A DNA stretch of 64,000 nucleotides from contig JAZNVC010000001.1 of the NCBI GenBank assembly GCA_045592625.1, forward strand, positions 136,825 through 200,824, in the 5' to 3' direction. Made by a program: the position numbers and the translations under genes. Below are positions 17,063-18,490 of the stretch, one piece after another. This DNA is from Acutalibacteraceae bacterium. GTDB lineage: Bacteria; Bacillota; Clostridia; Oscillospirales; Acutalibacteraceae. Each line of letters starts with the position of its first letter. Position 1 is the first letter of the stretch. Under the pieces are notes generated by a model that searched no databases, was not told where the DNA came from, and saw only the letters and a program-made list of their open reading frames with translations.

Positions 17063-18490
17063 ATGGGTAAAAAGATTATAAGAACAGTGTTACTTTTTGT
17101 ATCGCTAATAACCCTTATTATGTCCACTGTCAATACCACTCTTTGCTATGTGGCTTCAAAAACCGACACTCTGACTAATATTTTCAAGCCCCAAGATAAA
17201 ATAACAAATGGAATTTCAGTAATAAAAAGGGTAGAGCATCCTTTTGGAAAAGATTACGTAATACCCGAAAATATTGCCTTTGATTTCACTCTTTCTTTTG
17301 GTGCATACTATGCCGAAACAACACTTAAAACAGCACAGGGCGAAATGAAGACCGATAGTAACGGCGACCTTACCGTAAAGGTTAAACCTAATATTCCCTT
17401 TACTGTAGAGGGAATTGACGTAGGAAGCAGCGTTACCATAAAGGAAAACGACTTTTCGGCAGAAGGTTTTGCCAAAAAAGGCGAGGACGAAAAAACCGTT
17501 CTTGTTCCCGAAGTAAGCTTCGTAGAGGCTGAATTTGTAAATACCTATACCCCAAAAGCAACCGACATAAAGGGGATAACCCTAAAAGGCAAAAAGGTGC
17601 TTGAGGGCAGAGACTGGAAAGAAAAAGACTGCTTTTCCTTTCTGTTAGAATATAGAAGTAACGGTCAATGGGTAAAGCTGGATAAACAGACAATAACCTA
17701 TAGTGAAGAAAACTTTAAACCCGAGTTCGATTTCACCAAAGCCATTTCTAAACTCTCCTTTACTATGGCAGGTGAATATGAATTTCGTATGACCGAAGAA
17801 AAGGGCGAACTCAAGGGTATGGTTTACGACGCTACTGTGAACACCTTTTCCCTTTGCGTCACAGACAAAGATATGGACGGACAACTTGAAATTTCCGACG
17901 TAAAAAACGGTGAACATACTACCTCAACCCGATATGAAAACGGATTTTCCATTAACGTTGTCTTTAATAATACCTTTAAACCTCCGGTACCTGAAGACAG
18001 GTCCGTTCATATCTCTGTGACAAAACTCATTACCAATAAAGGTAGTTATAAACGCAGTCCTGAGGGCTTTGAATTTGTGCTTCTTAACAGCGAAACTGCT
18101 GAAGAATATACCGCAAAGACCGATGCAAACGGTGACGGTAAAATAGAGATTACTCTTTCAAATGAGGATATTGACAATACCCTTGTCTTTAAGCTTTATG
18201 AAAAGCATGGCAAAGAAAAGGGCGTGACCTATGACACAAGGGTTTATAAAGTGGAGATTAAGCCCTATTTGAATGAGGATTACGAAATAACAGCAGACTT
18301 CTTTGTTGACGGATTAAAAACAGAGCTGGTTAATGCGGAATTTACCAACATATGTGATATTGATAAACCTGTTAATCCCGATACGAGAATGGATAAGAGC
18401 GTTTATTTCTGGATGCTCCTTGCGTTTATTAGCGGTACGTCCTGTATTGTGATTATAATTACCGATAGATGCAAAAGAAAAACCGAGTGA
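17063..18490 (+). CDS. P6: SipW-cognate-like signal, pilin isopeptide-type domains and a C-terminal membrane anchor
   Basis: 475 aa. N-terminus ..MSTVNTTLCYVASKTDTLTNIFKP. It has two Y.F..TE....G..YD.....V.V-type repeats (GEYEFRMTEEKGELKGMVYDATVNTFSLCVTD and LVFKLYEKHGKEKGVTYDTRVYKVEIKP). C-terminus is VNPDT, a TM segment, then RCKRKTE. Confidence 0.7.
   Translation: MGKKIIRTVLLFVSLITLIMSTVNTTLCYVASKTDTLTNIFKPQDKITNGISVIKRVEHPFGKDYVIPENIAFDFTLSFGAYYAETTLKTAQGEMKTDSNGDLTVKVKPNIPFTVEGIDVGSSVTIKENDFSAEGFAKKGEDEKTVLVPEVSFVEAEFVNTYTPKATDIKGITLKGKKVLEGRDWKEKDCFSFLLEYRSNGQWVKLDKQTITYSEENFKPEFDFTKAISKLSFTMAGEYEFRMTEEKGELKGMVYDATVNTFSLCVTDKDMDGQLEISDVKNGEHTTSTRYENGFSINVVFNNTFKPPVPEDRSVHISVTKLITNKGSYKRSPEGFEFVLLNSETAEEYTAKTDANGDGKIEITLSNEDIDNTLVFKLYEKHGKEKGVTYDTRVYKVEIKPYLNEDYEITADFFVDGLKTELVNAEFTNICDIDKPVNPDTRMDKSVYFWMLLAFISGTSCIVIIITDRCKRKTE

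Follow-up and report, generated by a model that had tools for sequence, protein, structure and literature searches.

P6 is a 475-residue protein encoded at positions 17063-18490 (plus strand, 475 codons plus a stop) of a 64,000-nt stretch of an Acutalibacteraceae genome (the whole stretch is hereafter the window), where it closes a SipW-dependent fiber operon that also specifies a SipW-type signal peptidase and the proteins P1–P5. With moderate confidence, and judging from sequence, P6 is assigned here as the cell-tethered initiator or anchor of the fiber made by this operon, i.e., as the functional equivalent of TapA, made of different modules. Three traits make a cell-tethered base or initiator the best reading and place P6 in the fiber system: (i) its strict operon position, (ii) an N-terminal module that joins a SipW-type signal to a donor-strand-like segment, and (iii) isopeptide-competent residue triads. 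The earlier note on this DNA had pictured P6 as a base subunit that tethers a donor-strand fiber to the cell through a membrane anchor; synteny, the signal/strand module, and the triads support the tether, while plain membrane anchoring is not supported.

The same-strand gene row that ends in P6 comprises a sipW-type gene, P1, P2, P3, P4, P5, a 67-residue open reading frame (ORF) with a single transmembrane helix, and P6. A database search returns 170 relatives of P6 at E ≤ 1e-3, mostly of about 480 residues and almost none of them named. When one genome per species was scanned, relatives were found in at least 244 species-level genomes of uncultured gut Oscillospirales and other Clostridia, the closest being from Acutalibacteraceae (77–81% identity). 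Synteny was counted in the 80 best loci of this survey, with the upstream side judged in the 42 loci whose sequence extends 7 kb or more in that direction. All 42 encode a SipW homolog ahead of the P6-like gene on its strand, and 41 of them P1/P2 homologs as well; in all 60 loci with enough downstream sequence, no further P-class gene follows the P6-like one. This arrangement persists at identities as low as about 31% and in proteins of up to 1544 residues, the added length of which comes from extra FctA repeats. Such length variation would suit a stalk or spacer that can be lengthened or shortened.

The N-terminus of P6 links it to P1–P5. The hydrophobic region of its signal peptide spans residues 1–28 (17063-17146, plus strand), on the basis of hydropathy over residues 1–30 and a helix at residues 2–32 in an AlphaFold2 model. 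Overlapping its end is a conserved linear motif at residues 25–43 (TTLC|YVASKTDTLTNIFKP; 17135-17191, plus strand), which combines a predicted SipW cleavage register with a donor-strand-like L-x-N39-x-F41. A custom profile was built from 209 N-termini of the P1–P5 class at 84 related loci, with all P6-like proteins left out, and was run (E ≤ 10) on the N-terminal 110 residues of each of the 5555 ORFs that these loci contain. It recognizes 75 of the 84 P6-class proteins, 13 of them at E < 1e-3, versus about 15 of 5134 unrelated ORFs. The profile alignment sets T26-L-C-Y29 of P6 on the G-T-l-A-Y of P1–P5, a register that corresponds to the G-T-W-A|A of TasA, the SipW cut site. Downstream, N39-I-F41 aligns with the N-v-f of P1–P5 with a one-residue insertion, as in P2. 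The match stops where P1–P5 enter their β-sandwich body, and P6 thus has the signal and first-strand module without the fiber-subunit body.

Conservation within the P6 family, assessed in an alignment of 63 sequences, points to the same module. Among the regions compared, mean entropy is lowest at residues 23–46 (1.13 bits versus 1.3–1.7 in the folded domains); T25 and F41 do not vary at all, and T26, N39 (97%), and P43 are conserved at 97–98%. In the AlphaFold2 model, residues 28–46 are the sole segment of at least three residues with a predicted local distance difference test score (pLDDT) below 50. A conserved but disordered peptide that reaches about 15 residues beyond the predicted cleavage site is what the donor strand of a monomer, or a binding peptide, would look like. 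L-x-N39-x-F41 also matches the donor strand of Clostridium perfringens BsaA, V33/N35/F37, which was defined by experiment (10.1101/2024.11.04.621531).

The body of P6 is made of three immunoglobulin (Ig)-like domains. Both peptide strings that the earlier note quoted as signatures of Spy0128-type repeats are present in the ORF, and the repeats themselves are borne out by matches well over the cutoffs to TIGR03786 (58.7 bits, cutoff 31.85, E 5e-16) and to Pfam FctA PF12892 (57.7 bits, cutoff 22.1), each in two stretches. A third, related domain matches DUF7601 (PF24547) with 27.2 bits over residues 68–162. Domain 1 is the DUF7601 Ig-like domain (17207-17548, residues 49–162) with the candidate isopeptide triad K55/E128/N160. 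Domains 2 (17576-17977, residues 172–305; PF12892 and TIGR03786) and 3 (17999-18355, residues 313–431; second PF12892 stretch) are FctA/Spy0128-like, are likewise encoded on the plus strand, and carry the candidate triads K178/E245/N303 and K321/E380/N429, respectively.

The AlphaFold2 model, computed from the 63-sequence family alignment (mean pLDDT 87), contains the folds and triads that the earlier note had anticipated: three β-sandwich domains lie between the helices at residues 2–32 and 446–474, and in each domain Lys sits on the first strand, Asn on the last, and Glu on a central one. This is the strand arrangement of the Spy0128 isopeptide bonds. All three triads are invariant or at least 90% conserved in the 63-sequence alignment, those of domains 1 and 2 being invariant. 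A profile search of PDB sequences with P6 returns T-antigens of Streptococcus pyogenes (E 1.7e-11), in which the region of the catalytic Glu and the isopeptide Asn is aligned with E380 and N429; FctB and FctB3, two basal pilins, are matched as well. The best Foldseek matches are all sortase-assembled pilins (Spy0128 T-antigens, PitB, and SpaC), and single domains, domain 3 among them, match FctB with TM-scores of 0.64–0.71 (normalized by FctB length). By sequence and model, each domain is probably locked by an autocatalytic Lys–Asn isopeptide bond.

The C-terminus determines how P6 would be held at the cell. A transmembrane helix at residues 446–470 by hydropathy (446–474 in the model) is followed by the basic tail DRCKRKTE (18398-18487, plus strand), and the earlier note is right, taken literally, that P6 ends in a membrane helix and a basic tail and lacks LPXTG. 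This account is incomplete, since at the position of the P6 sequence N-P-D-T-R (residues 438–442; 18374-18388, plus strand), a putative degenerate sorting motif, homologs carry [VP]-P-x-T-G(-D). Nearly all of 120 inspected relatives have P-x-T-G-D, about four further residues, a transmembrane helix, and a basic tail. Conservation in the 63-sequence alignment is 0.90 at P439, 0.97 at T441, 0.76 at G442, and 0.81 at D443, and about three quarters of the relatives combine P-x-T-G-D with the helix and the basic tail. By its motif architecture, the C-terminus of the family is laid out in three parts like a sortase sorting signal, with a clostridial x-P-x-T-G motif. A purpose-built membrane anchor is rejected on account of this family-wide motif, and the notion of a plain transmembrane helix gives way to that of a putatively decayed sortase-type sorting signal.

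The apparent decay in P6 is a change of Gly to Arg that takes two substitutions (GGT to AGA). An independently sampled relative with 91% identity (P0001) also has PDTR, while relatives at 70–80% identity have V-P-D-T-G or T-P-D-T-G. The two substitutions together with the same change in the independent relative exclude a sequencing error. Within the membrane helix (residues 446–468; 18398-18466), S457 is invariant and W450 is conserved at 0.89; a conserved Ser and Trp are unusual in a generic stop-transfer segment and may mark contact with a specific membrane partner. Four relatives of about 790–800 residues (P0017, P0038, P0072, and P0099; L017-type) have P-P-T-I-D in place of P-x-T-G-D and a lysine-rich cytoplasmic tail of 60–90 residues after the helix, which suggests a permanently membrane-anchored variant.

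The window holds a second candidate sorting motif. A 2130-residue adhesin (19389-25781, plus strand) with a VWA domain, seven FctA repeats, and two DUF7601 repeats ends in a T-P-D-T-S tail where its orthologues have P-A-T-G-D or T-E-T-G-D, a change that again takes two substitutions (GGA to TCA). Both candidate motifs of the window, in P6 and in the adhesin, therefore lack the Gly, and this shared loss suggests that the lineage has lost the sortase or altered its specificity. The models for LPXTG anchors do recognize the adhesin orthologue at survey locus L005, which passes TIGR01167 while the adhesin of the window does not, and a SpaH-type pilin at L051. Tails of the x-T-G-D type also occur on other surface proteins of related genomes, two of which pass TIGR01167. 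Among the P6 homologs tested, only faint C-terminal matches were seen, to the sorting-signal end of IsdC (E 0.004) and to a doubled-LPXTG model (E 0.025).

On these grounds, we infer a sequence of steps that includes SipW cleavage, strand donation, isopeptide formation, and sortase processing. P6 would be exported by Sec and cut by the SipW-type peptidase of its operon after T26-L-C28, in the T-x-small|aromatic register of P1–P5 and TasA. The cut would free an N-terminal peptide of about 15 residues (Y29…F41-K-P43), predicted to be disordered in the monomer, which could then enter the β-sandwich of a P1/P2-type subunit as a donor strand and so cap or nucleate the fiber. Having no acceptor body, P6 would occupy one fiber end only. 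The three tandem Ig-like domains, each probably isopeptide-locked, would act as a rigid stalk that holds the fiber off the membrane. In most relatives, P-x-T-G-D, the transmembrane helix, and the basic tail would let a housekeeping sortase join the stalk to peptidoglycan; in the present genome, with the motif decayed to PDTR, the C-terminal helix may keep P6 in the membrane. If a sortase acts on the P6 family, it must be unlinked and of the housekeeping type, no sortase gene having been found by crude methods in the window or in the 10-kb flanks of the survey loci. A typical family member is thus probably wall-anchored by a housekeeping sortase, and the P6 of the window may be membrane-retained via its PDTR variant.

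The proposed acceptors, P1 (10445-11086) and P2 (11103-11711), are paralogous putative fiber subunits of about 200 residues, encoded on the plus strand, with a SipW-type signal and a V-x-N-x-F strand. They are clear paralogues in hhalign (99.8% probability), and NCBI names P1 relatives "SipW-dependent-type signal peptide-containing protein". The TasA/camelysin family PF12389 is matched at E ≤ 0.01 by 27 of 37 members of the P1 family, P1 itself scoring 19.3 bits, under the threshold of 22.5; P6 has no match to PF12389. The P1 model (pLDDT 81.6) is a β-sandwich with helices and a disordered segment at residues 22–35. Alongside the V-x-N-x-F strand, three residues are invariant in each protein (N36/E49/K79 in P1 and N45/E58/K83 in P2), and they resemble the intermolecular isopeptide triad N35-E56-K74 of BsaA. 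In that protein, Asn35 locks to Lys74 with Glu56, and mutagenesis has demonstrated that the V33/N35/F37 donor strand and the acceptor residues E56 and K74 are needed for heat-stable polymers (10.1101/2024.11.04.621531). By analogy, fibers of P1/P2 may be covalently locked.

Several results weigh against this assignment of P6. (i) TIGR04088, which accepts SipW-dependent-type signal proteins at 19 bits or more, finds no match in P6 at E ≤ 10, either at full length or in the first 60 residues; P1 (29.5 bits) and P4 (20.1 bits) pass, P3 (18.3 bits) and P5 (17.0 bits) fall just under, and P2 has no match. The custom profile gives the P6 of the window only 10.1 bits (E 0.15). The resemblance of the P6 N-terminus to the SipW-cognate signals of P1–P5, as originally claimed, is only partly confirmed: it is consistent in register across the family and faint for this one protein. 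(ii) The TasA-like nature of P1–P5 is only moderately supported. An hhalign comparison of the P1 profile with TasA residues 3–113 gives an E of 1.4e-3 but a probability of 17% (the TasA sequence used was validated against the fiber structure 8aur at 504 bits). Foldseek finds no significant PDB match to the P1 model, and TasA is not in the top 50; the archaeal bundling pilin 7ueg is matched only at E 0.03, and the query model included the signal helix, which may hurt the search. Profile searches of PDB sequences with P1 and P2 return nothing meaningful. (iii) TIGR01167 and PF00746 have no match in P6 or in seven homologs at E ≤ 1, and no curated LPXTG-anchor model reaches its threshold with the P6 homologs examined. 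(iv) Crude methods find no sortase gene in the window or in the 10-kb flanks of the 80 survey loci; a TLxTC-type pattern in the window, phmmer with a Staphylococcus aureus SrtA sequence across all loci, and a looser pattern with a downstream Arg return only spurious ORFs, and a sortase may be encoded at a distance in the same genome. (v) The BsaA model adds subunits at the membrane end, in which case a donor-only subunit would be distal and not basal. (vi) Strand donation and the isopeptide bonds in P6 are putative, being read from sequence.

A more far-reaching version of the tether is entertained only tentatively. The P6 family may form a fully covalent link from wall to fiber that dispenses with a pilus-specific sortase, with the C-terminus of the stalk joined to peptidoglycan by a housekeeping sortase and N39 forming an autocatalytic intermolecular isopeptide bond with the conserved P1/P2 Lys, aided by the conserved Glu, as in the exchange-and-lock of BsaA; the lineage of the window would then have lost the sortase step and kept a membrane-tethered version. 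If true, two Gram-positive fiber-building chemistries would be merged in one subunit, and if the donor strand of P6 locks covalently as well, a natural tag/catcher-like pair would result.

Alternatively, P6 could be an independent surface stalk or adhesin that shares only the operon and the SipW signal, its N-terminal motif serving SipW recognition and the protein never entering the fiber. The profile likeness to P1–P5, which is weak and covers the signal region, agrees with this, stalks made of FctA domains occur widely in adhesins that are not part of pili, among them the neighboring 2130-residue VWA protein, and the VWA protein BsaC, encoded in the sipW operon of C. perfringens, is secreted independently (10.1101/2024.11.04.621531). 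The conservation of P6, however, runs about 15 residues past the predicted cleavage site to P43 and includes Φ-x-N-x-F, which exceeds what a signal peptidase normally reads. P6 also consists of three stalk domains only, with no recognizable ligand-binding head, and its strict terminal position in the operon together with the TapA precedent favors a structural role in the fiber. An independent stalk is accordingly considered unlikely.

A placement of P6 at the opposite end of the fiber is very unlikely. As a distal cap, P6 would be the donor-only first subunit that ends at the tip, with its C-terminal anchor cleaved or transient. In the BsaA model, the free N-terminal strand of an oligomer enters a newly secreted, membrane-held monomer (10.1101/2024.11.04.621531), and P6 has no acceptor body, both of which suit a tip position. 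A transmembrane helix with a basic tail, a P-x-T-G signal, and a rigid stalk of variable length are nevertheless hallmarks of anchors that span the cell wall, and TapA, a donor-only initiator, is the anchoring and assembly protein of TasA (PMC10151520).

Also very unlikely is that P6 is polymerized by a sortase, as the shaft or the basal pilin of an ordinary Gram-positive pilus whose gene happens to adjoin the SipW operon. Sortase-assembled pilins, FctB included, make up all of its best matches in sequence and fold, its family has a P-x-T-G sorting motif, and the FctA pilus loci of S. pyogenes contain the signal-peptidase-like SipA (PMC4049620). Against this, crude searches of the window and of the 10-kb flanks of the 80 loci found no sortase, pilus-specific types included, the operon has no gene for an FctA-type partner pilin, the N-terminus of P6 is of the SipW/P1–P5 type whereas the neighboring FctA adhesin has an ordinary A-x-A signal peptide, and the SipW of the window has its catalytic boxes, unlike SipA, which is catalytically inactive (PMC4049620).

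The initiator/anchor role assigned to P6 has its closest functional counterpart in TapA. TapA (YqxM) of Bacillus subtilis is processed by SipW and donates its N-terminal residues to TasA; its Ig fold is complete, and it hence serves in initiation only (PMC10151520). P6 and TapA share (i) a sipW operon, (ii) a SipW-type signal, (iii) a short conserved stretch just behind the cleavage site as the functional element, putatively so in P6, (iv) complete Ig-type folds unable to accept a strand, and (v) the position of a minor subunit at one fiber end, which is known for TapA and predicted for P6. They differ in that no sequence homology connects them (P6 matches no TapA model in NCBIfam) and in architecture, TapA having one V-set Ig domain and no C-terminal anchor, and P6 having three Spy0128/DUF7601-type domains with triads and a sorting-signal-like transmembrane anchor.

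The C. perfringens sipW-bsaA-bsaB-bsaC system is related in another way. The preprint that describes it lists LPxTG, SpaA-domain, and sortase neighbors of TasA-family genes and speculates that LPXTG-BsaB ties fibers to peptidoglycan through sortase; BsaA oligomers were found in membrane-anchored rather than wall-anchored form (10.1101/2024.11.04.621531). Common to both are clostridial SipW operons, TasA-family subunits (putatively so here), a Φ-x-N-x-F donor strand, and, in P1/P2, the same invariant N, E, and K. BsaB is itself TasA-like, whereas P6 is the strand module alone fused to a pilin-type stalk, and a sortase gene adjoins the bsa operon, with none found near P6 operons.

FctB, like other basal pilins of sortase-assembled pili, resembles P6 in its domain family (TIGR03786/PF12892), its C-terminal sorting signal (in P6 a putative, degenerate one), its role as wall-proximal anchor (proposed for P6), and a signal-peptidase-family gene in the locus. 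A pilus sortase attaches FctB to the shaft via a lysine, while P6 would join by an N-terminal donor strand with no linked sortase. PapH and FimI, the terminator-anchor subunits of Gram-negative chaperone-usher fibers, take part in donor-strand exchange on one side only and thereby define and anchor one fiber end; PapH, which is held by the usher, can receive a strand but has none to give. P6 would follow the same one-sided logic with opposite polarity and no homology, anchored by the wall or the membrane. In Bacillus cereus, CapP is a cell-wall-associated accessory protein of a system described as sortase-independent (PMC13082335).

These precedents narrow what is new about P6. The earlier note was aware of no such subunit for TasA-like fibers, a statement overtaken by TapA as a SipW-processed, strand-donating initiator and anchor (PMC10151520) and by the speculated LPXTG-BsaB anchor (10.1101/2024.11.04.621531). 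Nor are the features of P6 strictly those of separate pilus systems, given that Spy0128/FctA pilus loci already encode the signal-peptidase-like SipA (PMC4049620). A dedicated end subunit of SipW-dependent fibers is therefore already known in TapA, and it is the combination of parts in P6, as read from sequence, that appears new: the literature search found no description of a single polypeptide that unites a SipW signal/donor-strand module, a Spy0128-type stalk, and a sorting signal, and, within the library searched, no paper that pairs SipW with Spy0128, FctA, or CnaB.

The attachment of TasA-like SipW-dependent fibers to cells is unsettled, that of TapA being undefined and LPXTG-BsaB being only speculation. 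The P6 family provides a concrete anchor candidate that holds a donor strand, a rigid isopeptide stalk, and a wall-sorting signal in one architecture, and in which modules of sortase pili and donor-strand fibers appear to have been recombined in nature. Its operons point to abundant, unstudied, and apparently phase-variable surface fibers of uncultured gut anaerobes.

The signal peptidase that opens the operon (9918-10448, plus strand) is a SipW-type, i.e., ER/archaeal-type, signal peptidase I with SPSMEP, THRIVG, and KGDAN boxes that keep the catalytic Ser, His, and Asp. It scores 106 bits with TIGR02228 (cutoff 51.85) and 116.7 bits with the SipW equivalog model NF046067, under its cutoff of 190. 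P3, P4, and P5 (11734-16837, plus strand) are large subunits of 519–603 residues in which a shared N-terminal module, scored at 74–78 bits by the custom profile, is followed by C-terminal extension domains. The first ~45 residues of P4 and P5 are near-identical. The C-terminal halves of the three proteins diverge, P3 having repeats that resemble a parallel β-helix and P5 a faint M26_N match. Depending on the genome, one to five genes of the P3–P5 type lie between P2 and the P6-like gene, as if their products were interchangeable payload subunits mounted on a single fiber.

The conserved 67-residue single-transmembrane protein (16843-17046, plus strand) is often encoded directly upstream of P6-like genes, lying within 400 nt of them in 20 of the 80 loci. 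Its transmembrane helix is followed by ELKYLNxEIxRTxGxERxYWxRxRRRLWLSLIPFVKY; it has 31 distinct homologs within these operons and no match in Pfam or NCBIfam. After P6 comes a convergent ruvX-like gene, with the 2130-residue VWA/FctA protein just beyond. Promoter-like sites in a promoter/terminator scan of 9600-19500 are at background level, and the operon boundary is not clear from it.

Immediately 5′ of sipW lies an invertible element of about 1.45 kb (8345-9823) that contains a tyrosine recombinase gene (8634-9734) and is edged by inverted repeats of 35–40 nt (8345-8379 and 8411-8450 versus 9784-9823). Relative to the orthologous loci L005 and L006, the element is flipped while both flanks are collinear, an arrangement suggestive of a phase-variation switch acting on the entire fiber operon. 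A third locus, L007, shares the orientation of the window at the sipW-side junction, its contig ending before the other flank.

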